Positions 4,908 through 59,807 of a stretch of 64,000 nucleotides of DNA are shown here, one piece after another; position 1 is the stretch's first letter; each line of letters starts with the position of its first letter. The DNA comes from an uncultured Chlamydiae bacterium. GTDB taxonomy: Bacteria; Chlamydiota; Chlamydiia; Chlamydiales; JAJFMA01. Location: the NCBI GenBank assembly GCA_963713615.1, contig CAVQMM010000001.1:2720001-2784000 (forward strand). The letters run 5' to 3'. Below the pieces are notes generated by a model. It was not told where the DNA came from. It made no database searches and was given only the letters and a program-made list of their open reading frames with translations. The position numbers and the translations under genes were made by a program.

Positions 4908-5597
4908 GAGGTAATTGCAGAAGTCCGATTTCCGAAGTCAATTCCTGAAACTCGAATACAATCGAAGAGAGAGAGAAGCGATTCCCTTCCTAGGCCCGAA
5001 GGGTCGATATTGCAACAGGCCAGGGCATCGCCCCATAGGCCTCAACCTAAGCCTAACAATCGTATCTCGGCGCGCAGCGCTTTGGAGTGCGGTCGCTTGC
5101 GACCGCTTTGGGTTCCTTGCGACGGTCGTGTGCAACGGCATTACTATAATTCCCTAAGGGTAAAATAGTTAGTACATGCAGCCTTCGACGAATCCATACA
5201 ATGCCGTTTAGCATTGCCGTCCCAAGGAACGAAAAGCGGTCGCAAGCGACCGCACTCCAAAGCGCTGCGCGCCGAGATACGATTGTGAAGTCCTAAGTCA
5301 TTGAGATATAAGCTCAAAAGACCTGTTAGGTTGAGGCCTATGGGGCATCGCCCTGGTATACGCCAGGATAGGGTTTCGCAGTCTGAAAGACTGCCACAAG
5401 ATGCCGGTTTGCACACACCATTTATGCATGCTTTCTATGGCAGTCCTTCGAGGCTGACAGGAAATATCCCTTGGCCTGTTGCAATATCGACCCTTCGGGC
5501 CTAGGAGGGAGTAAGGGCCTGTGTCTCCAGGCCAGATAGTGCCATGCCATCTGAGTTCTCTAGAATTGCCTTCTCGCAAAAAAAGGTAACATTTTTT
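4908..5597. mobile_element. Composite MITE family C, copy 1 (right end missing), carrying a nested MITE
   Basis: Starts GAGGTAATTGCAGAAGTCCGATT like the 29372 copy and is similar to it up to AAAGGTAAC; internal inverted arms GGCCCGAAGGGTCGATATTGCAACAGGCCA. Confidence 0.8.
5034..5342. mobile_element. IS4/IS231-like MITE family B, copy 1 (309 bp)
   Basis: Perfect 17-bp TIR CATAGGCCTCAACCTAA; 11-bp TSD GGGCATCGCCC (5023-5033, 5343-5353); internal 54-bp inverted repeat 5056-5109/5233-5286. Confidence 0.9.
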
Positions 5598-6846
5598 ACT
5601 CAAGGTCCTTTCTTAATACGCTTGGGGGCTTCAGCGAGGCATAGATAGCGCTTAGCTTTTGCACGGTAGCTTCCCAGCTGTATTGTTTAACAGCCTTTTG
5701 ACCTGCAGCAACCAATCGCTTCCCAAGGGCTTTATCTGTAGCTAATTTAACCATTTGTGCAAGAAGCCCCTCTTGGTCATTGTCTTCGAAAAACAAAACG
5801 TCCTCATCCGAGTGTGTAAATCCCGGAATTCCGCCGACTCGGCTGGCAATCACAGGAACTCCGGCAGCCCAAGCCTCAAGAATGACGATGCCAAACGGCT
5901 CCATGCGCGAGGGCAATACAAACATATCGGTAGCTCGGTAAGCACTCGGTAACAAGGGATCATCGGGTTGTAATCCGGGAATCAACAGCACTCGGTCGGA
6001 AATGTTTAGCCGCGCGGCCGTAGAACGAATCTCCTCGGCATAGCTTTCCACATTAATAGGCCCAATAAGAACAAGTTTGTATCCGGGAAAACGCTGGGCA
6101 AATTCAGCAAAAGCCTTAACCAATAGAACTTGATTCTTTTGAAAATCGATTCGGGATACGCACAAAATCAGGCGTTCGTCATCCTCAATGCCATATTGCC
6201 GACGAAATTGACCTGGGTCCGCCGTGCAAAATTTGTCTTCATGTACGCCATTGGGAACATAGCAGACTTTTTTACTAGGAAAACGTTTTTTCATCTCCTC
6301 ATATTCATCCTGTCCCACACAGATGATTGCGTCAGCATCTTGCAATGTACGTCGGGCCCCTAGCAACCATCCAAAAACCTTTCCCCACTCCCAATTGTTT
6401 TTGAATGGTTCTTGCATCTTGGCAGCATGCTCTGCTGGCATCGTGAATACCCCGCCATGAACACTGACAACATATGGGATACGCCTGAGACGCGCTACAG
6501 TGCGAGCTATACCCCCTAAACGGTGCTGCACATGGGTGTGGATAAGGGACAGATTGGGTTCACGTAGAAGAGAAAGAAACAGTGAAAATGAAAGTGGACT
6601 TCCACCCTTGAGACGCATCTTAGCTTGCGCATCATCGCTAAGTCCAATCCAAGGAAAAGTATAGCTAAAGCGTCTTACTGGAACTCCTTCAATGACTTCT
6701 TGGCCTGATTGACTGAACATGTCTGTACAAAAGATAACGTTGGAAACGCCTTTTTTAGACAGCTCTTGGCATGTATTAAAAACCACAGTCTCTGTTCCAC
6801 CCCACTTAGCGGGGGTAAAGCGGCGCATGACATGTGCAATCTTCAT
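5596..6846 (-). CDS. Glycosyltransferase family 4 (GT-B)
   Basis: GGTE N-terminal motif, VPNGV, EPFGIVILEAWAAGVPVIASRVGG. Confidence 0.92.
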   Translation of the reverse strand: MKIAHVMRRFTPAKWGGTETVVFNTCQELSKKGVSNVIFCTDMFSQSGQEVIEGVPVRRFSYTFPWIGLSDDAQAKMRLKGGSPLSFSLFLSLLREPNLSLIHTHVQHRLGGIARTVARLRRIPYVVSVHGGVFTMPAEHAAKMQEPFKNNWEWGKVFGWLLGARRTLQDADAIICVGQDEYEEMKKRFPSKKVCYVPNGVHEDKFCTADPGQFRRQYGIEDDERLILCVSRIDFQKNQVLLVKAFAEFAQRFPGYKLVLIGPINVESYAEEIRSTAARLNISDRVLLIPGLQPDDPLLPSAYRATDMFVLPSRMEPFGIVILEAWAAGVPVIASRVGGIPGFTHSDEDVLFFEDNDQEGLLAQMVKLATDKALGKRLVAAGQKAVKQYSWEATVQKLSAIYASLKPPSVLRKDLE

Positions 6847-15575: not shown

Positions 15576-15934
15576 GCCCATATACGTTAAGCTAAGAGAA
15601 TTAGGAATTTTCACCGCCGAGGCGCCGAGACACCGAGATAGGAGAGAGAGGATTAGGAGAGAATGTGCCGTTTGTGTGTCCTTGGACAGCATTTTGCCCA
15701 AGGACACACAAACGGCACAGGTGCTCAATCTAACTTTTTTTGTTAAATTGAGAACCTGTTCAGTTACTGCTCTGGACAAAACCCAGTCTAAGGGCTCTAC
15801 AGAATCTTATTCTTGCGGGAACCCTTAGACTGGGTTTTGTCCAGAGCAGTAACTGAAAATTCTCTCCTCTCTTTCCTAATCTCGGTGTCTCGGCGGTGAA
15901 AATTCCTAATTCTCTTGGCTTAACGCATATGGGC
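15576..15934. repeat. Large palindromic MITE/REPIN-like element (family D arms with internal hairpins)
   Basis: Terminal IR GCCCATATRCGTTAAGCYAAGAGAATTAGGAATTTTCACCGCCGAG; internal hairpins at ~15664-15719 and ~15758-15857; related to 48421-48636. Confidence 0.85.
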
Positions 15935-20795: not shown

Positions 20796-20812
20796 AGCAG
20801 GCCCCTTTTTGG

Positions 20813-20972
20813 GGCCTTATTCACCTTTGCGGTCAGTTTTCGGTCGACTGCAAAAGGATCGTCTGTCGCGTTTTGCTCCTCGGACATAGCTGGCGCTATG
20901 CCCTCGCCACAAACCACGACATCCGACCTTTTTCGTCCGACCGAAATTCTGACCGCAAAGGTGAACAAGGCC
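20813..20972. mobile_element. MITE family A, copy 2 (reverse orientation)
   Basis: Reverse complement of the 1241 copy; perfect 8-bp TSD CTTTTTGG. Confidence 0.92.
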
Positions 20973-21060
20973 CTTTTTGGACCTGTCTATCACATCACCG
21001 CAATTAATTACCTCTTGAGATGCACACACCACCTATGCAGTGTCCCGTAGATCAGCTAAT

Positions 21061-22804: not shown

Positions 22805-22862
22805 GCCGCACTCCTAGCAGGGGAAGTCAAGTTTCGTATAATGCCTAGTTCGCCCAAATCCA

Positions 22863-22946
22863 AAAGCGGTCGCAAGCGACCGCACTCCAAAGCGCGCCGA
22901 GTGACGATTGTGATTCCAAAGCGCCCCCAATTCTTCACAAGAACCC
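22863..22946 (-). repeat. REP-like hairpin plus an ISL3-like MITE end
   Basis: AAAGCGGTCGCAAGCGACCGCACTCCAAAGCG followed by CCCCCAATTCTTCACAAGAACC (end shared with 39248 and ~56728). Confidence 0.75.
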
Positions 22947-23147
22947 AAATTGAGTCCTCAGAATCCCTTTCCTGAGGCGCCAGAGTGAGCCGAGAAAACA
23001 ATTTTATGCATGGTGCAAATCAGGGGAATAAATAGCCACATTATTGGATCAGAATCACTTTTTTTGACAGATTTTTTTTTCACAGGTTGATTAGAGACTC
23101 GGTGTTAGAGGAGAGAAAAAAAATAGGTCCATTGGAAATAATTGCAG

Positions 23148-23477
23148 AGGCTCTTTAAAATCTAGAAGATGTTGTAGATAAGGTAAAAATGGACTTTATG
23201 CAGGATCGCTTCGCGGCATGATATGCAGGATCACTCCCACCTTCTAAATGCAAATAGAGTCTGACAATGAGCTTATACCCCACTCGGTCATAAATTTGGA
23301 TTTGGGCCCACGCGAATCTATTCCAACTCCATACCATAAATTTTTTAAAATAGCGTTAACCCTATGAATCTGAAGAAGATGGGAGTGATCCTGCATATCA
23401 TGCCGCGAAGCGATCCTGCATATCCGTTACAGTCGATTTTAGACGTATCTAAAACATCTTTTAGATTTCAACAAGCT
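23148..23477. mobile_element. MITE-like element with ~30-bp imperfect TIRs and a 48-bp internal inverted repeat
   Basis: Ends AGGCTCTTTAAAATCTAGAAGATGTTGTAGATA / TATCTAAAACATCTTTTAGATTTCAACAAGCT; inner IR 23197-23244 vs 23375-23422 (1 mismatch); no clear TSD. Confidence 0.7.
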
Positions 23478-29205: not shown

Positions 29206-29371
29206 AACCTCTTCTGGGGTTTGTTTCCTTAATACGGCAGTGTAACAGGAGGATTAGGATTTTTACCACAGAGGACACAGAGTGCTCTGAGATAGGAGAG
29301 AGAGGAGGGATTTATTTTTTTTTATTTAATAGATGCCCATGGGGTCCATTAGTGTCCATGCTGTCCATTAA

Positions 29372-30123
29372 GAGGTAATTGCAGAAGTCCGATTCTCCGA
29401 ATTCAATTTCCTGAAAATCGGATGCCGGTGAAGAGAGAGTCATTCCCTTCCCAGGCCCGAAGGGTCGATATTGCAACAGGCCATGGCATCGCCACATAGG
29501 CCTCAACCTAACAGGTCTTTTGAGCTTATATCTCAATGACTTAGGACTTCACAATCGTATCTCGGCGCGCAGCGCTTTGGAGTGCGGTCGCTTGCGACCG
29601 CTTTTCGTTCCTTGGGACGGCAATGCTAAACGGCATTGTATGGATTCGTCGAAGGCTGCATGTACTAACTATTTTACCCTTAGGGAATTATAGTGATGCC
29701 GTTGCACACGACCGTCGCAAGGAACCCAAAGCGGTCGCAAGCGACCGCACTCCAAAGCGCTGCGCGCCGAGATACGATTGTTAGGCTTAGGTTGAGGCCT
29801 ATGTGGCATCGCCATGGTATATGCCAAAACGGTTTTAGCAGCCTGTAGGGCTGCCATAAAGCGCATGCATAAATGGTGTTTGTAAACTGGCGTCTTGTAG
29901 CAGTCCTTCAGACTGCGAAATCCCTTCCTGGCATATACCATGGCGATGCCATGGCCTGTTGCAATATCGACCCTTCGGGCCTGGGAAGGGAGAAAAGCCT
30001 GTCTTTCCAGACTGGATAGTGCCATACCACTTAAGCTCTCTAGAATCGCCTTCTCACAAAAAAAGGTAACCTTTTTTCCCGAGAATCGATTCTCAAGGGC
30101 TCAAATAATTTTGCAATTACCTC
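29372..30123. mobile_element. Composite MITE family C, copy 2 (complete, 752 bp)
   Basis: 12-bp TIR GAGGTAATTGCA/TGCAATTACCTC; 5-bp TSD ATTAA; interrupts a 9-nt-period GTCCAT tandem repeat. Confidence 0.88.
29495..29803. mobile_element. IS4/IS231-like MITE family B, copy 2 (309 bp, inverted relative to copy 1)
   Basis: TIR CATAGGCCTCAACCTAA; 11-bp TSD TGGCATCGCCA (29484-29494, 29804-29814). Confidence 0.9.
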
Positions 30124-30344
30124 ATTAATGTCCATTTTTTCTGAAGCAAAAATGGACTTTATAGACAGTAATTGACCTTATAAACATTTATTAAACAAAA
30201 AAAATAAAAAACCTATCCAATGTTTCCTTCTTTTCTCCTATCTCTGTGCACTCTGTGTCCTCTGCGGTAAAAATCTTATTTCTCTCTCCTTTACAAAAAG
30301 CGACGCCTCTAGGTACCGTAGACGCATCTAAGAACGAGGACCTG

Positions 30345-33914: not shown

Positions 33915-33946
33915 TGAAGCTCTTGTAACGGCGTGCGATTCAATAG

Positions 33947-34106
33947 GGCCTTGTTCACCTTTACGGTCAGAATTTCGGTCGGACGAAAAAGGTCGGATGT
34001 CGTGGTTTGTGACGAGGGCATAGCGCCAGCTATGTCCGAGGAGCAAAACGCGACAGACGATCCTTTTGCAGTCGACCGAAAACTGACCGCAAAGGTGAAT
34101 AAGGCC
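33947..34106. mobile_element. MITE family A, copy 3
   Basis: Near-identical to the 1241 copy; perfect 8-bp TSD TTCAATAG. Confidence 0.92.
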
Positions 34107-34311
34107 TTCAATAGGCTCGCCCAAATCCAAAGCGGTCGCGAGCACGCACTTCCAAGTAGCAAGGCGTTAGTGGGGTTACAAATTCGTAACAAAGGAAGGA
34201 AGAGAGCAGAATAGGGAGGATTACATCGGGCAGGGGCAAGGGCACGCACACGGGCACGAAGAAGCCTCTTTAGCGTTACTTTTGGATATTGGCGACGCAG
34301 TCGGTTGGGGC

Positions 34312-35754
34312 CTATGCTGCTAATGGAAGAACGGCTTTTTCGTTTGGCACAACCGTCAGTTCTGACATGCTACGACCAAGAACCTTGGCAGCACCAAGCC
34401 AACTAGCAATGGCCAGGATAATGATTACAGCGAGAAGTGGTACTCCGCCACCAATGGTTGCGAAGATCATCACTAGACCTTGGTGTACCACTGAGGCCAT
34501 CGATCTGCCCAAACGAGACCCCAGACCATCCACAGCGGCTTTACCCTGAGCCTTGATGTGAGATTCAAGAGGAATAAAGGCCAAGTCTTTACTGACGTCT
34601 AACAGAGAGTGCTTGCTGGCCCTGCCAGCACTGAATTGTACCGCTCCAACCATCACCGCAACAGTCATCAGAGTCGTGGTTTCAAATGGCAAGTATTCTC
34701 GCATTAATAAAAGCCCAAAGAAAACAACGCTACATCCCAGTAGGAAGATGGGGCTTATCATGGCTGTCTTGGTCCATCCAAAACGATCTAATAACGTGGG
34801 GGCAACCATTGCTAACAGGACTGTTAGTATTCCACATACCGTCGAAGTATGGCCTAAAAAGGTATTGTATTGATTGAAATCCGCATAGACCTCTTTGACT
34901 TCCGCCTTCCACACGAGTTCAAATAAGTTCATTACCAAATTGTAAGCAATAACCATCACAGCGAGACATAGAAGATGGCGATTCTGAAGGAGTTGATGCA
35001 GCTGTTGTAGGGCTCCCACGTTCATCTGATGCTTCGACGGTGATTTTCCAGCTTTGCCTAGTCCTACAACATAGGAACTCAATAGCCAGCGAAAGAGAAA
35101 AATTGTAGTCAAACATCCCGCGATGATAATTGTAGAAAGCCCATACACAGAGAAGTTGGGCATGACATTACCAACGAGGACAGAGACTTGCCCACCCACA
35201 GCAGCCCCTAAAGCACCTCCAATACGTACCCATGAATAGGATTTCTGCGCTTCGTCTAGAGGTGTAATTTCGTTTGCCAAGCTCCAAAAGATGACTGAAG
35301 TGACCATGCATGCCCATAGCTCACCGACGACAAAAAACAGAGAAAGTGTCCAATTGCGCATCATTGCTACAAAGCCCTTTAAACCCGTTGGAAGCAAGGA
35401 ACTGGCTGCCTCAGCGTAGCTCCGCGGTTCAATGATGTCGCGATAAGGGTAAAGAACGCAGGCGAAGAGAATAAAGAAGGCTAAGAAGCCTATGAGCAGC
35501 TTATAAATAACAGTGACTAGTCCTTGACGCTTTAGGGATGTACTAAACCACAGCGTTACTACACAGGTCAAAGGAAGCAACAACCACAGTTGAATAAATG
35601 GGATGACTTCAGCACCAGATCCTTCTGCTGTTATCACCAAAGCGTCTTTCATGGCGTGCAGTATGTTGTGAACGACACAAATGATGAAGAATATGATACT
35701 CATTAGTACCACTCTCTGACCGGATTTTTCTGCTGCTCCTTCAAAATTGGGCAC
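34312..35754 (-). CDS. Npt/TLC nucleotide transporter, divergent paralogue 5
   Basis: MKDALVIT, AEVIPFI, GELW, FWSLANEI, KAAVDGLGSRLG. Confidence 0.88.
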   Translation of the reverse strand: MPNFEGAAEKSGQRVVLMSIIFFIICVVHNILHAMKDALVITAEGSGAEVIPFIQLWLLLPLTCVVTLWFSTSLKRQGLVTVIYKLLIGFLAFFILFACVLYPYRDIIEPRSYAEAASSLLPTGLKGFVAMMRNWTLSLFFVVGELWACMVTSVIFWSLANEITPLDEAQKSYSWVRIGGALGAAVGGQVSVLVGNVMPNFSVYGLSTIIIAGCLTTIFLFRWLLSSYVVGLGKAGKSPSKHQMNVGALQQLHQLLQNRHLLCLAVMVIAYNLVMNLFELVWKAEVKEVYADFNQYNTFLGHTSTVCGILTVLLAMVAPTLLDRFGWTKTAMISPIFLLGCSVVFFGLLLMREYLPFETTTLMTVAVMVGAVQFSAGRASKHSLLDVSKDLAFIPLESHIKAQGKAAVDGLGSRLGRSMASVVHQGLVMIFATIGGGVPLLAVIIILAIASWLGAAKVLGRSMSELTVVPNEKAVLPLAA

Positions 35755-35782
35755 TTATTTGTCTTCCTCCCTCTACACTATA

Positions 35783-37255
35783 TTATGCGGCTGCTCTGAC
35801 AGCGTCAGAAATGTTCTTCTCATTATCTCCATCTGCCTGATCACTAAACTTTCCAAATTGAATCCCTAGGTACTTAACAGCACCAATCCACACCACCAGG
35901 GATGTCAGCAGAACTAGCCCAACCATCGGAATGCTATTTGAGATCGTGGTAAACATAATAATGAAGACCTGATGGAATCCTGCGGAAGCACACCGTCCAA
36001 GGCGAGAAAGACCACCATCTATCGCTGCTTTGCTTTTGAGCTTGATAGCTGGATCAACAGGAATAAAGGCCATGTCCTTAGTACCATCAAGGACCGAATG
36101 CTTGGTTACGCGTGCTACAATTTCCATTAGGCCCCCTAGGAGCACACCAATTGTCAGTAGAATACTGGCGTGCGTCGGGAAGAAGTCAGTAAGGTATAGA
36201 GCGGTAAGAAATGCAAATCCGGTAACAAGCAACGAAATTGGGCAGATCATGGCTGTCTTTGTCCATCCCAAACGTGCCAATATGCGGGGAAACATCGACG
36301 CTACAACAATGGAGCCAATGCCAATCACAATGGTGATGTATCCCAAGTAGCGATTATAACTGCTGAAATCGGAGAAAACGTGTTTTAGTTGATCCTTCCA
36401 CACCAATTCTCCTACATTCAAAACAAGATTATATCCCAGAACAATGATACCAATGCTCAGGAGATAAGGAGATCTAAAAATGGATGCCAAAGCTTCGATG
36501 AGCCCGTCTTTCTTCGATCTATCGCGCGCATTAGCTTCATGACGAATAACATCGTACTCGGAGCCTACAAGGATCTGGGTTGTCATCCGGTGAAAAAGCA
36601 CCAACATGCCCAGTCCCATTGCTAAAACGACTGCCATCAATCCATAAACGGACATTTCCACCGAAAGATCACCCGCAGCCAAGGGCACAAGACCTGCTAG
36701 AGTAGCTCCTAGGTTACCCCCCATCATGTACACCCCATAGGAACGTCTGGCCGATGAGAGGCTGGAAATCGTGTTAGCAAAGCCCCAAAATAAAACCGCT
36801 GTAACCGTTGAGGCCCACAGTTCACCAACCGTATAAAAAGCACTAAAGGTCCAATTGCGAATCATACCCACCATGCCGTGCAAACCAGAGGGCATCCAGA
36901 TCAAGGTATCGTTCGCAAATGCCTGTGGATGTAAAACATCGCGTAGTGGGTAAAGAACCAAGGCAAAAAGAGCGAAAAAACCGAGAAAACTGCCAACGAC
37001 CACATAGAAAAGTGTAATTTGATTGTAACGACTCGCTAGACGAGTAAAGGCCCATGTAACAAACAATGTTGCTGGAAGCATCATCCAAATTTGAATGAAG
37101 GGTATCACCTCGGTAGCCGATCCCTCAGCCGTGATCACTAAGGCATCTTTCATGTTGCGGATGATGGAATGGATAAAGCAGATGAGGAAAAATATGAGAG
37201 TCATGAACAAAGTAATCCTACAACCAAGGCCTAACCTGTTGCGGATCCGAATCAT
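35783..37255 (-). CDS. Npt/TLC nucleotide transporter, divergent paralogue 4
   Basis: RNMKDALVIT, GELW, FWGFAN, KDMAFIP, KAAIDG. Confidence 0.88.
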   Translation of the reverse strand: MIRIRNRLGLGCRITLFMTLIFFLICFIHSIIRNMKDALVITAEGSATEVIPFIQIWMMLPATLFVTWAFTRLASRYNQITLFYVVVGSFLGFFALFALVLYPLRDVLHPQAFANDTLIWMPSGLHGMVGMIRNWTFSAFYTVGELWASTVTAVLFWGFANTISSLSSARRSYGVYMMGGNLGATLAGLVPLAAGDLSVEMSVYGLMAVVLAMGLGMLVLFHRMTTQILVGSEYDVIRHEANARDRSKKDGLIEALASIFRSPYLLSIGIIVLGYNLVLNVGELVWKDQLKHVFSDFSSYNRYLGYITIVIGIGSIVVASMFPRILARLGWTKTAMICPISLLVTGFAFLTALYLTDFFPTHASILLTIGVLLGGLMEIVARVTKHSVLDGTKDMAFIPVDPAIKLKSKAAIDGGLSRLGRCASAGFHQVFIIMFTTISNSIPMVGLVLLTSLVVWIGAVKYLGIQFGKFSDQADGDNEKNISDAVRAAA

Positions 37256-37404
37256 ACACCCTCGTACGTTCTATTTAATTAACAAGCCTAACAATTCTCC
37301 ACCAATTTTAATACAATATACAATTAAAGTAAAGACAAACGAATTAAATCAAGAAGCGCATTGTAAATAACCAAACAACGTATAGACTACTAGTGACTAT
37401 TGCA

Positions 37405-38916
37405 TTAAGCTGCTTGTGCAAGGTTTTTGCAGGCTGAACTATTCTTAACAGACTGTTGGGTAAGATCCGCAAACTGATATCCCAGAGAACACGCAGAGAC
37501 AACCCACACAAAAATACAACCCGTTATAATGACGAAGATCATAGGCATACTTTGACCAAGGCTGCTAAAGACTATAATACATAGTTGTTGAACGATGGCA
37601 GAGCCCGAAATAGCTATACGAGATAACGCCCCATCAATGACAGCCTTGCTTTTGAGTTTCAACTCGGTCTCCAGGGGAATAAAAGCCAAATCCTTGGTTC
37701 CATCAAATACCGAATACTTCGTCATGCGCCCCAGAACTTCCATTAAACCACCGGTAAGAACAACAATACCTAGTATGGTGACCGACTCAAAAGGCAAGTA
37801 GCTGCCAAAGCAGAGTATACCGAAGAAACAGACACTTGCCACACCTGTCGACGCTGGACATAACATAGCGGTTGCAGTCCATCCCAAAGTATTTAGGATG
37901 CGGGGTAGAAAACCAGCCAAAATCATGGCTCCTACCCCAATGGCTGTGGTGGTATAGCCCAAATAGTTGTTGTAAGCATTAAAGTCCCCACATACTCGTT
38001 TGAGCTGATCTTTCCAAACTACCCCGCCAATACTATTCACAAAGTTAAAGGCAAAAACAATGACCGCTAGGCACAGAAGGTAACGATTGCAGATGAGCAT
38101 ACGAAGAGATACTAAAAGAGAAATTTTCTCAGGTTTTTCACTTGGATCTATCACCTGGTGAATACAATCATACTCCGATCCTATGAGAACATAACGGGTC
38201 AGCCATTGAAACACCGCTAACGAGACTAATCCGGAGACTATAATCACGACTAACAGGATATAGATCGATAGTTCGGGGGAAATTCCACCTACAAGAGGAG
38301 GGATCAGGCCCGCCATCGTAGCCCCCAGATTGCCACCCATCGCATAAAGACCATAGGATCGTTTAGCTTGTTGCAAGTTACTAATTGCATTGGCAAAGCT
38401 CCAAAAGAGAACGGATGTTACCATACTTCCCCACAACTCACTCATTGTAAAAAAAGCACTGAATGACCAATTACGTAACATGCCTACCAGGCCGCGCAAC
38501 CCATTCGGCAATTGAGCTGATGCACCCAAAGCAAACTCATGCAGATGTATGAAATCGCGTAGAGGATATAAAACGCACGTGAATACGACAAAGAAAGCTA
38601 AGAATCCACCCAACACCAACTGAAACAACGTCCTTTGACTATAGCGAGATGCCAAGTAGGTAAAGACCCAAGTAGCCAATAATGTTGCCGGTAGCAGCAT
38701 CCAAAGTTGAATAAAAGGAATGACCTCAACATCAGCCCCCTCAGCTGTTATAACTAGGGAGTCCTTCATAATTCGCAAAAGTGAACGAACAATGCAAAGC
38801 AAGAAGCAGATTAGAGTCATCGCAAGGGTGATTTGACATTCGAGACCTAACCTCTGACGAATCCAGTTCAATAGGTTCCCGAAATTGGTTCCAATAAATC
38901 TAGCCACAACCACCAA
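37405..38916 (-). CDS. Npt/TLC nucleotide transporter, divergent paralogue 3
   Basis: MKDSLVIT, SELWGS, KYSVFDGTKDLAFIPL; start uncertain. Confidence 0.88.
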   Translation of the reverse strand: MVVVARFIGTNFGNLLNWIRQRLGLECQITLAMTLICFLLCIVRSLLRIMKDSLVITAEGADVEVIPFIQLWMLLPATLLATWVFTYLASRYSQRTLFQLVLGGFLAFFVVFTCVLYPLRDFIHLHEFALGASAQLPNGLRGLVGMLRNWSFSAFFTMSELWGSMVTSVLFWSFANAISNLQQAKRSYGLYAMGGNLGATMAGLIPPLVGGISPELSIYILLVVIIVSGLVSLAVFQWLTRYVLIGSEYDCIHQVIDPSEKPEKISLLVSLRMLICNRYLLCLAVIVFAFNFVNSIGGVVWKDQLKRVCGDFNAYNNYLGYTTTAIGVGAMILAGFLPRILNTLGWTATAMLCPASTGVASVCFFGILCFGSYLPFESVTILGIVVLTGGLMEVLGRMTKYSVFDGTKDLAFIPLETELKLKSKAVIDGALSRIAISGSAIVQQLCIIVFSSLGQSMPMIFVIITGCIFVWVVSACSLGYQFADLTQQSVKNSSACKNLAQAA

Positions 38917-39018
38917 AGGCTAATTAATTTAGTTTTATAAGTTACAATTTTATATAATTAAAATCAATGCATTTTAACACTCATAAGTTAAATTAAATAA
39001 TAAATACTTTCAAAACTA

Positions 39019-39248
39019 GGCTCTTGGAAGGAATTGGGGTGCTTTGGAATCACAATCGTCAATCGTGGCGAAGCGCTTTGGAGCCCCAACCGACTGCGTC
39101 GCCAATATCCGAAAGTAACGCTAAAAAAGCCCCACGAGCTTCTATGCGCTCGCGCTGCGCGCCGAGTGACGATTGTGACTCCAAAGCGTAGCACATCTAT
39201 TCGATGGTTTGTGGCAGCAAAAAGCTCCCCCAATTCTTCCCAAGAACC
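39019..39248. mobile_element. MITE with ISL3-like ends carrying REP fragments
   Basis: Ends GGCTCTTGGAAGGAATTGGGG / CCCCCAATTCTTCCCAAGAACC; inner IR GCTTTGGAATCACAATCGTC / GACGATTGTGACTCCAAAGC; no clear TSD. Confidence 0.7.
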
Positions 39249-39275
39249 TTATAAAATCCTGTTTTTCATCCGCTG

Positions 39276-40862
39276 CTAGGTAACAGCGGGAGCTTGAGTT
39301 TGCGACTCGGGTTGCACTGGATGTTCTAGGGCAAGAGCAGCAGCCACAGCCTCTGCTTCATGTTCCTCTCCGATCTGTTCACCCTTCTTCGCTACGAGAG
39401 CATGAAGCTGACGTCCCAAGGACTTGGTAGCAATGATCCAGGCCACAATAACAATTAATAGAATCGCGGCAACATAGGGGGCGCTGGCGCTGAGCGTGGT
39501 GAAGATCAATAATAGCCCTTGATGCAGGAGAGACCCTCCAGACTTGCCAAAACGTGAACCAACACCATCAATAGCCGCTTTACCTTTCAACTTATATTCG
39601 TGAGGCAAGGGAATAAAGGCCATCTCTTTGGTACCATCAAAAACGGAATACTTACAGCCTTTGCTTAAGGAATTCTGAGCTCCCCCAATAAAAACGATAA
39701 GGGCCAAGGGAGTAGCACCAAAAATCCAGGCGCCTTCGATCGAGATAAGATCTTTAAAAAACAGGAGGGTAAAAAAGCCGATACCTGTAATCAAAATAGT
39801 CATCGGAGTGATCAGAGCAGTAAAGGTCCAACCCATCTTTTTGATCAAGAAAGGCAGGAAAAAGCAAAGAAACAAAGAAATCAAGCCTACACCCGTGGTA
39901 ACATTACCCAGGTAATTATTATAATCAGCGAAGTTTGGATAGAGTTGCTTAAGCTGATCCTTCCAAACAACCTCAACGAGATTAATCACCAGGTTATATC
40001 CCACCACCAAAGCGGCAATACAGAGTAGGTATTTGCTTTGGCTGAGCTGTGACATGCTCTCACGCATCGATAGTTTCTGCCGCTGCTCACCTTCGAGAAG
40101 ACGACGACGACCATGAAGCGCATCATAGTTGCGATTATTGAGAACATAGATGTTCATCCAACGAAAAATAACCATCGTAGCAAAGCCACTGACCAGAATA
40201 AGAGTCATCAGAATGACTACAGAATCTCCAATTCCAGCATCTGCAACCATTGAAGGAACCTGACCAGCCAGAACAGCTGCAAGATTACCGCCAGCACTAA
40301 GAACTGCGTAAAAGCGTCTTGCATCACCGATGCGGGTCACCTCATTAGCAAACCCCCAGAATAGCACCGTTAGGACGATACATCCCCAAAGTTCCGATAC
40401 CACATATAAGCTGGTAAAAGTCCAATTTCGCAGCATGGAAACGACCCATCGAAAGCCACTCGGAAGGATGTTCTCTAAAGCTTCGGCCGTTTCATGGGGA
40501 TGAAGGGCATCCTGATTGGGATATAGCACGAAGACAAAGAGAGCAAAGAAGACCAAAAAGCCACTGATAATCATGTAAAAAACGTTTTCTTGACTATAAC
40601 GGCTGGCAAGCTTGGTATAGAGCAAGGTGAGTAGTACGGCCATAGGAAGCATTGCCCAGACCTTAATGAAGGGAATAACCTCTGCGCCTGAAGACTTTGC
40701 AGTGACTACCAGAGCATCCTTCATGTTGCGTAGGACGCTATAGTTAAAACAAATGCAGAGCAGCATCAGGAACATCGGCAATACCATGCGATTTTCCTCC
40801 CTGCGAATGGGCCAGAAAATTCCTCTTAAAGTTCCGAACTGAGGCTGCTGAGTTTGTTCCAT
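39276..40862 (-). CDS. Npt/TLC nucleotide transporter (canonical chlamydial type)
   Basis: FGTLRGIFWPI, AEVIPFIKVW, SELWG, NLVEVVWK, GKAAIDGVGSRFGKSGG. Confidence 0.93.
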   Translation of the reverse strand: MEQTQQPQFGTLRGIFWPIRREENRMVLPMFLMLLCICFNYSVLRNMKDALVVTAKSSGAEVIPFIKVWAMLPMAVLLTLLYTKLASRYSQENVFYMIISGFLVFFALFVFVLYPNQDALHPHETAEALENILPSGFRWVVSMLRNWTFTSLYVVSELWGCIVLTVLFWGFANEVTRIGDARRFYAVLSAGGNLAAVLAGQVPSMVADAGIGDSVVILMTLILVSGFATMVIFRWMNIYVLNNRNYDALHGRRRLLEGEQRQKLSMRESMSQLSQSKYLLCIAALVVGYNLVINLVEVVWKDQLKQLYPNFADYNNYLGNVTTGVGLISLFLCFFLPFLIKKMGWTFTALITPMTILITGIGFFTLLFFKDLISIEGAWIFGATPLALIVFIGGAQNSLSKGCKYSVFDGTKEMAFIPLPHEYKLKGKAAIDGVGSRFGKSGGSLLHQGLLLIFTTLSASAPYVAAILLIVIVAWIIATKSLGRQLHALVAKKGEQIGEEHEAEAVAAALALEHPVQPESQTQAPAVT

Positions 40863-41006
40863 AAATCCTCGAGAAAAACATTCTACACCAAGTATACCGC
40901 GTCAAACACATTTGACGAAGAAACAAGAAAAAAGCCCTTGTCGAATCGCCAGCCTATATAACCGCGCGTGGTATAGCTGGGGCCAACAACAGTAAATATT
41001 GTGTCA

Positions 41007-42593
41007 TCACACTACAGCCTCTTGCCCCTCTATTGCATCTTTACTGCTAGGGGCCAGAGCCGGTCTAGCTGGCGCTGCAGCAGCAACGCCTTTTTCAGTA
41101 AGTTCATTAAAACGTTTGCCCAGGGCATACACAGCAATAATCCACAAAACAATAACACCCAAAAGCCAAGCAGCAACATAAGGGGCACTGGCAACAATCG
41201 TAGAGCAGCAAAGCAGAAGCCCTTGATGAATCACCGAACCACCCGATTTACCCAAGCGAGAACATACACCATCAATAGCTGCCTTTCCCTTGAGCTTGCA
41301 TTCACTGCTGAGAGGAATAAAAGCGAGCTCCTTGGTTGCATCGAATACCGTGTATTTTGCACCTCGGCTAACACAATTCTGCATCGACCCTAAAAACACC
41401 ACCAATGCCGGTGTGCTAATTCCAGTCAACATGGGTAGCACAGCACACATTCCCTCTTTACAAAAGAAGAAATAGAAGAAAAGGATGCTTGTGAATAGCA
41501 ATGCTACAGGAGTGATCAAGGCCGTGAAGGTCCAGCCAAAACGTCGAATAAAATTCCCGGTCCCTACCAACGCAGTTAAAGTTGCTAGGACACCGATGAT
41601 CGCCATGACCCCGTTCATGTAGAAAGTGTAATCGTGGGCACTGGGATAGAGATCGCGCACCTGATGCTTCCAGACGACCTCGACAAGATTGATCACGATA
41701 TTGTAGCCCACGACAATGATAGCAAGGCACAAGAGATAAGGCGAACGCACCAAATAGGCAAAACTGTCACGCATGGACAGCTTACCGCGAATCCCTTGAT
41801 CCTCAATAGCCTTGTCAGCGTCGTAATACAAAGGATCGGTCAAGACACTGCAATGCATCCAACGAAATAGGCCCGCCACAACGATACCACTCATCAAGAT
41901 AAGACCAATCTGCAAAAACAACCAGCGATCCCCTTCAGGGATGAACGGCAATGGAATCTGCGAACCGTAACTAATGAGTGCCATAGAAGTCAGACCGGCC
42001 ACGGTACCAGATAGGTTAGCTCCGAGGCCAAAGAGACCATAAAAGCGTTTAGCTTCCTCAATACGTGTAATCTGGTTAGCAAAGCCCCAAAAGAGCGTAA
42101 ATACAATGATAGCGCTCCACAACTCCGCCATGACATAGAAGCTGGTAAAGGTCCAATAGCGACACATGGAGATGAACCCACCCAATCCCAAAGGCAGCCG
42201 CTCCTGCAACCAGTCGGCGAGAACATGAGCATGAAAGTGCTCACGGAAGGGATATAGAATGGTGACAAACAACAAGAAAAAGCCTAGGAAGAGTGCCATC
42301 ATGATGTAAAAGACGATCTCGCGTGACCAACGATTGGCTAAGCGAGTGTAGACGAAGGTCAAGACGACAGCCATGGGAAACATGACCCATACCTTGATGA
42401 AGGGAATCACTTCCGCTCCCGACGACTTCGCCGTAACGATGAGGGAATCCTTCATGGTACGTAGAACATTATAATTGAAAGATATGAAGAAAAAGATAAG
42501 AAGCATTGGTACTAGCTTCTTAAGCTCAAAGCGATGGATTGGCCATAAGAACCCTCTCCATCTTCCAAATTCTGGGTGAACAGGCTGTGACAT
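41007..42593 (-). CDS. Npt/TLC nucleotide transporter (canonical chlamydial type)
   Basis: FGRWRGFLWPIHRFELKK, PFIKVW, FYVMAELW, NLVEVVWK, SRLGKSGG. Confidence 0.93.
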   Translation of the reverse strand: MSQPVHPEFGRWRGFLWPIHRFELKKLVPMLLIFFFISFNYNVLRTMKDSLIVTAKSSGAEVIPFIKVWVMFPMAVVLTFVYTRLANRWSREIVFYIMMALFLGFFLLFVTILYPFREHFHAHVLADWLQERLPLGLGGFISMCRYWTFTSFYVMAELWSAIIVFTLFWGFANQITRIEEAKRFYGLFGLGANLSGTVAGLTSMALISYGSQIPLPFIPEGDRWLFLQIGLILMSGIVVAGLFRWMHCSVLTDPLYYDADKAIEDQGIRGKLSMRDSFAYLVRSPYLLCLAIIVVGYNIVINLVEVVWKHQVRDLYPSAHDYTFYMNGVMAIIGVLATLTALVGTGNFIRRFGWTFTALITPVALLFTSILFFYFFFCKEGMCAVLPMLTGISTPALVVFLGSMQNCVSRGAKYTVFDATKELAFIPLSSECKLKGKAAIDGVCSRLGKSGGSVIHQGLLLCCSTIVASAPYVAAWLLGVIVLWIIAVYALGKRFNELTEKGVAAAAPARPALAPSSKDAIEGQEAVV

Positions 42594-48420: not shown

Positions 48421-48636
48421 GGATTTTACCACAGAGGACACAGAGACGCCGAGATAGGAGAGAGAGGATTAGGAAAGAATGTTCAGTTACTGTTGGCTCT
48501 GGACAAAATCTGTCTAAGGACTTTACCAAAACGACAACCTCTCAAGAAGCCCTTAGGCAGATTTTGTCTAAGGCCCCACAGACGACACATTCTCTCCTAA
48601 ATCCTCTCTCTCCTATCTCGGCGTCTCTGTGTCCTC
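48421..48636. repeat. Family D inverted doublet interrupted by IS110 (right arm resumes at 50567-50588)
   Basis: Left arm GGATTTTACCACAGAGGACACAGAGACGCCGAGATAGGAGAGAGAGGATT; right arm stops at ...CTCTGTGTCCTC and continues as CTCTGTGGTAAAATCC at 50567. Confidence 0.9.
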
Positions 48637-48839
48637 CTAAATAACATTTTTGAGGGGCCAGCGTCAGAAAGGAGACATGAGGGAACATCACGCAAAGTTG
48701 GCAAAGTTTTTTCTGCTGTTTGCGTCTATAGAGCAGTCAGAAGTTTTTTTTAATTCATGATCGGGATCCCTAAATTTATATGAGCATCTTCTAACCGTAA
48801 TCAAATATGCAAGTGTCATATTTTGCCCTTCCAACTTAA

Positions 48840-48960
48840 AGGAATGGGACCACTCTCCTAAACGGGATAGCTAAAGCTTCACCAATGATAATGTCGACGA
48901 CTTGCTGGACCAAACTCTGTGACGGGCAATAATGCACCAACGTTTTAACGGCCTCTAGGA
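48840..48960 (-). ncRNA. Candidate IS110 bridge RNA core (target- and donor-binding loops)
   Basis: Two GGACCA-NN-CTC...ACGGG...CACCAA motifs 60 nt apart; one holds CTCTGTG (core plus target flank), the other CTCCTAAA (core plus element end). RNA ends are unknown. Confidence 0.7.
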
Positions 48961-49023
48961 TTGATTCGGTTGATTGCTCGCTTCTTGTATTCATCACTAT
49001 GCTAGATATCTAAAAGTTCAACA

Positions 49024-50402
49024 TTATCCATTGGCGACAAGCTTATAACCCATCTCCCTTGCTTGTTTTTGTATACGGTTGAGGTTTTTTTGCCGCTGCT
49101 CTTTTTCGAACTGCTCTGCTCCAAGTTCGTGATACTCTTTTTGATATTTCAGCATATGATAAATGATTCTGGCTAGTTTGTGAGCCGTTGCTGTAATGGC
49201 TTTTGGTGCTCCAAGTTTAGCCCTCATACGACGGTAATAGGCTCCTAGATAACTATCCGAAAAGGTAAGCGAATAAGCTGCCATACGTAATGCTTCCTTA
49301 ACCCGATTTTTACTTGCCTTTGTCCTTCCACTGAGTACCTTTCCGCCAGATACCTTATTACCAGGACAAATCGCCATCCACGAGCTAAAGTGTTTTTTGG
49401 TTTGCCATTTACTCATGTCAGTACCTATCTCTGACAATACCTTGGCAACAGTGTTTTCATTGAGACCTGGGACTTGACAAAGATCAACTCCCGCCCAAGA
49501 ATGCAGCTGTTTTTGCATATCAAAGGAAAAAGGGCTTCGATTGTATGATCTTTTTATGCTCTTTTTTAATTTTGGCTTTTTTTCATCAGGCTTTATTCTA
49601 TCCACCTTTTCAAAACTATTAATTACTTGCTTAATCTTTTCCTCACATCTGATTGCTTGCTCATGAAAGAACTTATAAGCTTCCCAGGCCTGTCCTAAAG
49701 CAAATAAATGTTCCTCGCGCCAGTTTCCTTCCAGAGCTTTAGCAATCTTTTCTTCACTTGATTTGCACCTTTCATCCCTTAGACGTGCCAACTGTGCAGG
49801 GTTGCGTTCTCCACCAAGAATTGCTTCGATTATAAGAGACCCTGTAAGACCAGAAATATCGCTCACAACCTGAGCGAGTTTAATATTGAGTTGTTGCAGC
49901 GCCTTGTGGGCATAGTTGAGTTGGTCCGCCGCTCGTTCAAAAAGAGCCTTTCGGTGACGCATATATGCCCTCAGCCTGACAACGTGATCCGCTGGCCTGA
50001 AAGATCCATTCAAAAGTCCGAAGGCATGCAAACGTTGAATCCACTTGGAGTCACAGACATCTGTTTTTCGGCCTGTTACATTTTTCATGTGATGCGCATT
50101 GACAAGATGAACACTAAAGCCTTCTTGTTCGAGCACCTCGAAGACGGGAATCCAATAGACGCCTGTAGACTCCATGGCAACAGTGTCTACACCGCATTTT
50201 TTTAACCAATGCGCCATCTGATGTAAGTCAGCGGTGAAGGCGACAAATTCGCGAACCTGCTCTGGGTCTCGACCGGCAGGAACACAGACAAACACACCTT
50301 CTGCTCCTACATCAATACCGCAAGCATTTGGATTGATGATTCTTAATCCTTCAGTATCGTTTTCTTTTGCTTTGGGGGCTTTTTTTGTGTAGACTTAGGC
50401 AT
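49024..50402 (-). CDS. IS110 transposase/recombinase, full length only with a -1 shift near 50380
   Basis: GIDVG, MESTGVYW, RKTDVCD (DEDD) and PGNKVSGGK (Ser motif); the ATG at 50402 is out of frame and joined through CAA AAA AAG. Confidence 0.88.
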
Positions 50403-50616
50403 GACGAAACCTTAATTTAAGACGTTTGGGTATTCCCCTGGCAGCTCTCAAAGGTCTGCCAGGGGACGTCATTTTGCCAAATCAGTCCCTTCGATGTAAG
50501 TTATTTGTAGATATAGCTCGCCATCCTACACCACTCCGATCCCCAACGGGCGCAGCGAGTGGGGTACTCTGTGGTAAAATCCTAATCCTTACTCCTCTCC
50601 TACCCCTCTTCCTCTC

Positions 50617-53363: not shown

Positions 53364-53451
53364 GTCCGGCGGAGTCGCTCGCGACCGCACCGAATTTCCT
53401 ATGTGGCGCAGTCATTCCATGCATAGTGTTGCACACATCTTTTTCTTGACT

Positions 53452-53525
53452 CACAATGGTATCTCGGCGCGCTGCGCTTTGGGTTCCTTGCGACGGTAAT
53501 GCTAAACGGCGTTGTACGGATTCGG
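53452..53525 (+). repeat. Internally deleted REP-like arm (the same repeat carried inside MITE B)
   Basis: ACAATGGTATCTCGGCGCGCTGCGCTTTGGGTTCCTTGCGACGGTAATGCTAAACGGCGTTGTACGGATTCG matches the MITE B interior without the central hairpin. Confidence 0.7.
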
Positions 53526-58175: not shown

Positions 58176-59807
58176 ATGTCCAGATTAACGTTATTGTTCG
58201 CTTTCATGTTTACCGCGATGGCGAATGTTGCATTTGGGTTTATGGGTTATGTATCGAATATCAATGATGTAACAGTTAGCGTTATTGATTCAACCAACGA
58301 AACAGTTGTTTCAACAATAACAGTGGGTGGAGCTGGAGGCGCTTATGGAGGCCCAGGAATCGTAGCAATCACTCCAGATGGAACGACCGCTTATGTTCCG
58401 ACCAGTACAAATTTAGTTGTAGTTGTCGATACATTTACCAATAGTGTCACCACAACATTAACAGTTGACAGCACTCCCACCCAAGTCGCAGTAACACCCG
58501 ATGGGACAAAAGTCTACACCTGTAACTTCAGCACTAATGATGTCAGTGTCATAGACACTGCATCTAACTCCGTCATTGCAACAATTCCAGTAGACGCAAG
58601 CCCGAATCTTCTTGCTATTACTCCAGATAGTACGCAAGTCTATATCGCAAACTTCGGCAGCGGGACTGTAAGTGCCATTGATACAGCAACAGATACAGTC
58701 ATTGCGACCATTACTGTTTTCGTTGGGAATTCTGGACCTAATTTTATCGTAATTACCCCTGATGGTTCAAAGGCTTATGTCACAGATTTTGCTGTTCCCC
58801 AAGTGAGTGTTATTGATACAGCGTCTAATACAATCATTTCTACAGTCTCAACAGGGTCGACTCCAGCTTGGGCCGCGGTCACCCCGGACGGTACAACAGT
58901 TTATGTTGTCAATCAAGGGGATAACACTGTCAGTGTGATTGATACGTCATCTAACACTGTTATCGCAACCATTCCTGTCGGGGCTTCTCCAAACTTTGTT
59001 GAAGTAACTCCAGATGGTACAAAAGCCTATGTGGCAAACAATGGAGAAACAAGTGTCAGCGTCATTGATACAGCAAGCAATACGGTGATTGCGACGGTCC
59101 CTGTAGGGAGCCAACCTTCCTGGATTGAGATCACTCCTGATAGCGCACAAGCTTTTGTAGCAAACTATGGCACCAATAATGTGACAGTCATTGATATTGC
59201 TTCAAATACTGTCATCACAACAATTCCTGTTGGTGCTGGGCCTTTTTCTATAGTTTTTGATTCCATACCTCAAGTAACAAATGCGAACCCAACTTCCGGC
59301 TCAGTAACAGGAGGAAATTCGGTCGCGATCACTGGTATTAATTTTACTGGGACCACATCTGTGTTATTCGGCTCTACACCTGCAACAAGTTTTGTTATTA
59401 ACTCAGACAGTTCTATTACAGCTATTGCTCCACCTGGGACCGGAACAGTCGATATCACAATAATAACAACCTATGGAACATCGACTATAACAGTTGCAGA
59501 CAGTTATACTTATACTACACCAGCAGATCCACTTCCGCCTTCAAATTTTATAGGAGTTCTAAAAAAGAACATCTATTTAAATGTGACCGAGTGTTTGCTT
59601 GGGGCAAAATGGGATGCGAGTCTTTCAGCCAATGTAGTCCTGTATCGAATTTATAAAAACGGAGTAGTGGTTGAGGAAATTTCAGCAACATCCCCATTGG
59701 TTTTTGTCACATGTCTTTGGCATTGCTCAGCTACAGGATACGAAATTACCGCTGTCAATTCAAATAACTTTGAGAGTAACCCGGTCGACCTAAGAATAGT
59801 GCATTAA
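58176..59807 (+). CDS. Secreted YVTN/YncE beta-propeller protein with an IPT/TIG domain and an FN3-like tail
   Basis: Signal peptide; about 7 ~42-aa repeats (ITPDG.KAYV.N....VSVIDT.SNTVIATIPVG); PTSGSVTGGNSVAITG...VLFG (IPT). Confidence 0.88.
   Translation: MSRLTLLFAFMFTAMANVAFGFMGYVSNINDVTVSVIDSTNETVVSTITVGGAGGAYGGPGIVAITPDGTTAYVPTSTNLVVVVDTFTNSVTTTLTVDSTPTQVAVTPDGTKVYTCNFSTNDVSVIDTASNSVIATIPVDASPNLLAITPDSTQVYIANFGSGTVSAIDTATDTVIATITVFVGNSGPNFIVITPDGSKAYVTDFAVPQVSVIDTASNTIISTVSTGSTPAWAAVTPDGTTVYVVNQGDNTVSVIDTSSNTVIATIPVGASPNFVEVTPDGTKAYVANNGETSVSVIDTASNTVIATVPVGSQPSWIEITPDSAQAFVANYGTNNVTVIDIASNTVITTIPVGAGPFSIVFDSIPQVTNANPTSGSVTGGNSVAITGINFTGTTSVLFGSTPATSFVINSDSSITAIAPPGTGTVDITIITTYGTSTITVADSYTYTTPADPLPPSNFIGVLKKNIYLNVTECLLGAKWDASLSANVVLYRIYKNGVVVEEISATSPLVFVTCLWHCSATGYEITAVNSNNFESNPVDLRIVH

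Follow-up and report, generated by a model that had tools for sequence, protein, structure and literature searches.

Our analysis makes it very probable that an ISPpu9-like IS110 element lies at the AG core of a CACAGAG hairpin repeat in a chlamydial genome, likely guided there by a predicted 3' bridge RNA. The window, to which positions refer unless otherwise indicated, is the whole analysed stretch of 64,000 nt from an uncultured Chlamydiae bacterium. The presence of IS110 elements in dispersed palindromic repeats is already known for IS621, ISPpu9, ISPpu10 and ISPa11. What goes beyond an earlier note on this DNA is the predicted 3' guide RNA, the guides of which match the target (CACAGAG) and the right end of the element (TTTAGGAG).

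The IS110-family element, present as a single copy in the genome, occupies positions 48637-50569 on the minus strand (1,933 bp with one copy of the shared GAG counted) and splits the right arm of a hairpin repeat of about 250 nt. The left arm of this repeat, which starts at 48421, the spacer and the inner right arm (48421-48636) retain an intact perfect stem of 37 bp (z -15.4), and the outer remainder of the split arm is found at 50570-50582 on the plus strand. Excision of 48637-50569 in silico, which the earlier note had proposed to rebuild the repeat arm, yielded 50 nt that match the left arm perfectly in reverse complement, and the restored empty site folds as one long hairpin. The proposed lack of terminal inverted repeats was also confirmed, none of at least 7 nt with at most one mismatch being detected within 30 nt of both ends. 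CTC had been described as the only duplicated sequence. It is indeed found at 48634-48636 and 50567-50569, but the shared core is most likely of 2 nt, AG on the transposase strand and CT on the other, because the target and the donor of loci L011, L065, L087 and L110 have just AG in common; CTC/GAG at both ends is one target copy and one donor copy, and not a true duplication. The right end is TGTTATTTAGGAG (48634-48646, minus strand), with the core AG at 48634-48635, and resembles the B box of ISPpu9 in the available text of PMC12288879. The left core AG is at 50567-50568 (minus strand). A lopsided sub-terminal inverted repeat consists of GTTATTT at 48639-48645 and its complement, AAATAAC on the minus strand, which lies 60 nt inward of the left end (50500-50506). 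The right end measures 391 nt, and on the left 205 nt separate the end from the matched frame. At 48594-48601, in the repeat and 40 nt outside the right end, the donor word TTTAGGAG was noticed once more; this copy could possibly represent an alternative excision point.

The gene neighbouring the element encodes DUF2709, a domain of chlamydial range, which points to an environmental chlamydia as the likely host. In the congener G002, the flanking genes are 424 nt apart versus 2,444 nt here, the right arm is worn and no IS was found at the orthologous site. The interval between the flanking genes is a variable site, since loci L186 and L187 of the congeners G001 and G003 hold unrelated large ORFs between the same genes. 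The left junction is crossed by two public sequence records, possibly from the element's own source sample. Further copies were found neither in its own genome nor in the six genomes of the same family that were searched, and four DNA runs of depth about 2, a depth uninformative about circles, contained no circle or empty-site joint.

The putative bridge RNA was located at 48825-48968 (minus strand), in the non-coding region 3' of the gene, with an RNA model built from 25 two-loop sequences, its own included. This match is the only one in the genome, and the model recognised nothing in the left end of the element; across 74 other loci, 55 matches were obtained. The predicted RNA has two loops and is homologous to the 5' RNA of most relatives, which carry the same two-loop motif upstream of the gene. 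A left-end RNA was also considered, as the hairpin loop TTTGAGAG resembles the donor words of other elements, yet it falls outside any model match. Two-sided changes were observed in 7 of 17 stem pairs over 14 sequences (0/500 shuffles), and the strand of the RNA is fixed by G-U pairs. A single bridge RNA sequence folds no better than its shuffles (z 0.31), and a promoter scan returned 5 sites versus 3.0 +/- 1.7, none of them usable. The predicted target guide TCACAGAG (48915-48922, minus strand) agrees at 7 of 8 positions with the left flank and core and is followed by the putative handshake bases TT, and the predicted donor guide TTTAGGAG (48855-48862, minus strand) agrees at 8 of 8 with the right end and core. 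The 5' arm of the target loop (48941-48948, minus strand) is unpaired with the right target half. The loop layout fits the IS621 template with the matched guide in the RTG position, which places CT on the strand opposite the gene. When the guide pattern was searched in viral contigs, 9 matches, none of them with the second loop, were read as chance, and no relative of L062 (see below) was found there.

The relation between guides and flanks was then examined across the clade, the guides of other elements serving as a non-circular control. The own target 7-mer was found upstream in 27 of 35 distinct RNAs versus 2.7% for other elements' guides, and the own donor 7-mer downstream in 33 of 38 versus 2.1%; 57 loci, many of them partial or divergent, were not parsed by the pattern. 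Permutation tests, in which kin count as independent, were applied to the bases that follow the target guide: the first of them was identical to the left end's first base in 26 of 30 cases (shuffled 13.5; 0/20,000) and the second agreed in 15 of 30 (6.5; 3/20,000), as expected of a handshake guide; 16 loci were unparsed in this test, and three were misparsed and without ends. No handshake signal was obtained for the donor loop (6/36). Between the right half of the target and the 5' arm of the target loop, weak pairing was detected in the clade (45 matches versus about 28, in 22 elements; 2/5,000, as one of 16 comparisons), and it was seen neither in the present element nor in L062, and the 5' arm of the donor loop gave no pairing signal in the clade. 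The IS621-like pairing of both arms of each loop was thus not found.

Several other loci of the clade deserve mention in their own right. L165 and L171 are two copies of one element whose guides differ by one base (TTATGAG versus TTATAAG), each identical to its own flank; both contain, at the very end of the transposase gene, a hairpin-like insert of about 100 nt that is absent from the third copy, L147. For other members, the target is a different palindromic repeat of known look or the end of another IS110. L001, L070, L071, L075, L077 and L067 lie in other palindromic repeats, of the types CCCTGAG-CTTGTCGAAGGG, GTCATTGCGAG and GTCATTCTGAG, and one GTTAG site recalls attC. The target guides of L005 and L064 correspond to the right ends of other IS110s, and both are located directly behind such elements. 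L067 and L008 are each followed by a further unit, giving tandem arrays.

An independent insertion at the same position of the same repeat was found in L062 (62% amino acid identity), the sister of the present element in a careful tree of 37 rows (100/97). It has the same guides and a 3' RNA and is inserted at the same base of a CACAGAG doublet, and the 9 nt to the right of the core are identical in both. Of the 10 insertion sites tabulated for CACAGAG-guided elements (7 genomes or contigs), 9 end in ACCACAGAG, which extends two bases beyond the guide-matched 7-mer and is found at 163 of the 588 CACAGAG words of this genome. A further exact word lies within 150 nt at 6 of the 9 sites with both ends, versus 175 of the 588 words. 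One CACAGAG-guided element, L173, has no repeat context. The earlier suggestion that the repeat is the element's target is supported by a target guide matching left flank and core, by the insertion of L062 at the same base and by the ACCACAGAG sites. The mapping of copies and flanks that it called for is limited to one copy in the genome itself, and the CACAGAG-guided relatives supplied the remaining flanks. The repeat had also been described as a multi-copy landing site of low cost. The copies are there, as 57 empty sites, but only one site is occupied in this genome. The low cost would follow from their intergenic position, an ORF of at least 120 aa holding 1 of the 57 copies versus 294 of the 588 bare words.

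Two other explanations of the location were weighed. Chance or host recombination, with coincidental 8-mers in the 3' end, might be considered since the element is single-copy in this genome and the 8-mers are short. This reading is contradicted by the guide-flank control (27/35 and 33/38, above); the 8-mers are found at constant places in the loops of a conserved RNA and vary with the flanks from one clade member to another, and the site is repeated by L062, so that we regard it as scarcely credible. The second explanation concerns what the element reads. As 588 bare CACAGAG words are present, 223 of them in a repeat-like context, the guide alone cannot explain the choice of site. The element might nevertheless read just the word of 7-8 nt without preference for the repeat, if the word is enriched in repeats and insertions in genes have been purged. 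With 223 repeat-like words and 294 in ORFs, about three quarters of the non-ORF words could be repeat copies; moreover, pairing is lacking for the second target arm, L173 has no repeat around it, and half-match activity of IS621 has been reported in a preprint of which part was available (10.64898/2026.08.31.748434). Against this stand the two bases of ACCACAGAG beyond the 7-mer at 9 of 10 sites, the 9 nt common to the element and L062, and the behaviour of ISPpu9, 11 of 12 fresh insertions of which were in REP clusters (PMC12288879, available text). This account is possible, although we hold it doubtful, and it differs solely in what adds specificity from the preferred reading, namely an element likely guided to the hairpin repeat by its predicted 3' RNA.

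The target 18-mer is present in the genome in 23 exact copies, in 57 when at most one mismatch is allowed and in 92 at two mismatches. Of the three nearby empty copies reported earlier, one is the left arm of the doublet that holds the element (48428-48445, plus strand), another is at 29265-29282 (plus strand) and the last, with one change inside the guide-read word, at 30251-30268 (minus strand). These three matches, versus 0.02 expected in shuffles, uphold the observation, but the starts had been given off by one. When the 92 copies were paired within 1.2 kb, 22 convergent and 0 divergent pairs were obtained. The repeat was detected in 22 of the 61 genomes searched, its own included, with 0 control matches. 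Rfam returned only sub-threshold miRNA-hairpin matches for the DNA repeat. One pair of convergent CACAGAG arms brackets a GxxExxY gene (L188, G000:C1:1854800-1855900); the other of the two GxxExxY genes is 55 kb from any repeat copy. Five of the six Y1 genes found were checked: they lie 4-61 kb from the nearest copy and none is flanked by the repeat. REP/REPIN-RAYT systems consist of inverted intergenic doublets in many copies, with a cognate Y1 (RAYT) gene flanked by the repeat. The host repeat resembles them as multi-copy intergenic inverted doublets and differs in its word and in flanking GxxExxY instead of Y1. It is also reminiscent of the Ssn/NTS nuclease-repeat systems, as described in part of PMC11893778, since one repeat pair brackets a small nuclease gene, GxxExxY, but its word and enzyme family are different. 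A literature search for GxxExxY with the repeat found no relevant paper. By eye, L167 is directly upstream of a GxxExxY-like gene.

Other repeats were observed in the same genome. A second IS110 is represented by nine copies (L053-L061, G000:C1) of about 1.77 kb with a frame of 408 codons and an apparent TC core; 9 of 9 left flanks lie in a different dispersed repeat, which is continued at 7 of the 8 right ends examined and of which 264 empty sites (at most 2 mismatches) were counted. In the window, that repeat is found at 4981-5050, 29442-29511 and 29941-29991. Intergenic inverted repeats noted in the window at 4981-5616, 29442-30096, 15576-15934, 20804-20977, 22831-23422, 33942-34311, 39027-39188 and 53450-53524 belong to at least four more families, one of which is nested in the stretch from the empty target copy at 29265 to that at 30251. 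Positions 58274-59230 contain a coding repeat with a period of 126 nt and a beta-propeller look, and at 34571-42167 five paralogous genes form an array with a spacing of about 1.5-1.9 kb.

The recombinase is encoded by an open frame of 456 codons (49024-50394, minus strand), in which the GID, MEST, RKTDVCD and SGG motifs are intact. The ORF contains both IS110 domains, PF01548 (DEDD RuvC-like) and PF02371 with the conserved serine. The sole match in a PDB search was 8WT6 (IS621; E 7.7e-09). No ATG is present in frame before GID. The homologous start, the conserved TTCGTCATG at 50402 (ATG at 50402-50400), is one frame off and meets a stop after 19 codons (50379-50402, minus strand). Among 28 loci checked, an in-frame ATG was found in 26 and a GTG in 1, and neither in the present copy; 21 of the 21 closest proteins (59-68% identity) have a Met start and a similar lysine-rich leader. 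We read the out-of-frame start as damage, perhaps of a leaky kind. The present copy would then be poorly active, which would explain one occupied versus 57 empty sites.

Two further readings concern the element as it now stands. The out-of-frame start could reflect programmed -1 frameshifting, by which an active element is tuned down. The heptamer A_AAA_AAG (seven A at 50380-50386) is in the right register for such a shift; it is a known shift-prone sequence, as in the IS3 family and dnaX. The A run is covered without gap by one public contig record, making an assembly slip unlikely, and the catalytic motifs, the guides and the ends are all intact. The arrangement, though, was found in no relative, with a protein database that favours in-frame genes, a literature search combining IS110, frameshift and A6G found nothing, and the element is single-copy; we therefore think a programmed shift unlikely, damage to the start being the preferred reading. 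Alternatively, the 3' RNA could belong to an RNA-only mini-element, similar to MITEPpu9/ssr9, docked behind an ordinary 5'-RNA element, the whole being a composite. ISPpu9 possesses such a module in the available text of PMC12288879. Within the clade, L065 carries an RNA-only unit at its right end (L065:1661-2030) with a guide matching that end, and L195 is a transposase-free, RNA-only unit alone in a CACAGAG repeat. The model, however, recognises a single RNA in the genome and nothing in the left end, no inner end motif was seen by eye between the stop codon and the RNA, and the layout with 3' RNA only recurs in 13 tree rows over several families. Such a composite is improbable for the present copy, and docking of a mini-element is likely the origin of the 3' layout and not its present state. 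A plausible route is that such a unit docked and the 5' RNA was later lost; no leftover junction was seen.

The distribution of RNA positions was followed in two trees. In a quick tree of 66 rows, from which six broken copies were left out, 13 rows have 3' RNA only, 42 have 5' RNA and 11 form an unlabelled outgroup; the deepest labelled branches have 5' RNA, and L065 has a 5' RNA plus its 3' module. In the careful tree of 37 rows the 3' label needs 3-4 changes, a single change being obtained in 0 of 200 bootstrap trees, but the backbone is unsupported and a single origin of the 3' layout is compatible with the data (AU p 0.32). The comparison of RNA and protein identities gave no clear sign of module swapping. 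At L008, two full copies are in tandem.

A motif of 9 nt lies just inside the right end of these elements; on the left, beyond a hairpin-prone stretch, its complement is found 25-60 nt inward of the end. In 30 of 33 elements at least 7 of the 9 positions agree, six ends having been placed by hand, and swapping of the right ends lowered the mean from 7.7 to 6.2 (0/2,000). The long spacing of 56-60 nt is found in the CACAGAG-targeting elements. A folded single-strand junction that would pair the lopsided repeat was considered, but is absent from the minimum-energy fold. Since the single-strand fold does not pair the repeat halves, the lopsided repeat is more likely a protein-bound double-strand signal.

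The clade of the present element is ISPpu9-like, as judged by eye from motifs and ends. ISPpu9 of Pseudomonas putida is described with an AG core, REP-doublet targets and an RNA-only module, MITEPpu9 (ssr9) (PMC12288879, available text); the likeness extends to the IS110 group, the AG core, the insertion in repeat doublets and the RNA-only modules. The protein row ISPpu9;ISPsy35;ISWpi13 in the available part of the Durrant supplement has FTADL, STGVYW and GLLN.SF.P in common with the element, and the A box of ISPpu9 ends in the complement of part of its own B box (both by eye; PMC12288879 for the boxes). In ISPpu9 the long 5' region is retained and a 3' module may be present in addition, whereas the RNA of the present element is 3' only, and its target repeat and host phylum are different (PMC12288879). 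IS621 shares the two-loop RNA layout, the CT/AG core, the handshake bases, a REP target and the DEDD and serine domains. In IS621, the RNA lies in the left end, the long guide is the 5' arm and CT is on the sense strand of the gene (PMC11208160, PMC13626964, available parts of both). In contrast, the matched guide of the present element is the 3' arm, CT is antisense, the protein exceeds that of IS621 by about 130 aa and no pairing of the 5' arm is seen. ISPpu10 combines guide pairing with a target stem-loop, with a strict RTG and a tolerant LTG, as the pattern here suggests, but its CT core is on the sense strand, both arms pair and the stem-loop has a tested role there, a putative one here (10.64898/2026.03.19.712850, in part).

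In the available text of Durrant et al., the RNA is in the left end in IS110 and in the right end in IS1111, a translocation being inferred (PMC11208160), and Siddiquee et al. describe members of the IS110 group with a 3' NCR and a switch between the close relatives ISMtsp17 and ISPye21 (PMC11187229). The present element has the general features of the family, a non-coding end with a predicted two-loop RNA whose guides match target and donor, but not the left-end RNA of the IS110 group, the sole model match being in the right end. It resembles the IS1111 group (ISPa11, which targets REPs, and ISEc11) in its long 3' NCR with RNA and in having a sub-terminal inverted repeat; in IS1111 elements such repeats, of 7-17 bp, are close to both ends, while the 7-nt repeat here is lopsided (PMC11187229). 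The transposase, of about 456-458 aa, resembles the ISPpu9 type by eye, and its length fits the 395-455 aa class of the IS110 group, as opposed to the 330-350 aa of IS1111 transposases (PMC11187229, available text). Also unlike the IS1111 type, the relatives mostly carry a 5' RNA. Tandem growth of IS110 loci is treated in a preprint, available in part. A literature search did not find the present element, its target or the lopsided repeat described, and Durrant Supplementary Table 5 may list 3'-RNA members of this clade.

These results are compatible with the following mechanism, drawn largely from IS621. Of the two loops of the bridge RNA, one would pair with the word in the repeat, the other with the right end of the element. 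The DEDD/serine recombinase would bind this RNA and excise a circle joined at AG, which would recombine into the AG of the target without true duplication, and the base after the target guide would pair with the donor after strand exchange as a handshake. As about 7-8 nt of target would be read by pairing, the hairpin context or protein contacts likely add specificity. The 3' position of the RNA would have been derived from the 5' position within the clade. A broader reading, which we put forward tentatively and only as a whole, is that the bridge RNA may be a movable cassette in the ISPpu9-like clade. Tandem arrays would be built by RNA-only mini-elements and by guides directed at the ends of other IS110s, and through loss of the 5' copy the RNA would have come to lie 3' of the gene on more than one occasion, a repetition within one clade of the switch from IS110 to IS1111. 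DNA would be found not by four guide arms but by a single guide arm of 7 nt, together with one handshake base and an inverted repeat that is lopsided and covaries. Several chlamydial lineages would have tuned this arm to the CACAGAG word of GxxExxY-nuclease repeats, the IS thereby parasitising a second, undescribed selfish repeat system.

The clade provides natural guide-target pairs for the unmapped ISPpu9-type RNA, and may constitute a large set of candidate editing tools whose core is AG. The occurrence of homologous RNAs 5' or 3' of recombinases of about 50% identity, together with RNA-only modules as plausible intermediates, makes the proposed move of the RNA from one end to the other testable. 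The apparently one-armed recognition and the lopsided inverted repeat bear on off-target behaviour. In the chlamydial host, the predicted guide of an IS would be tied to the CACAGAG/GxxExxY repeats.
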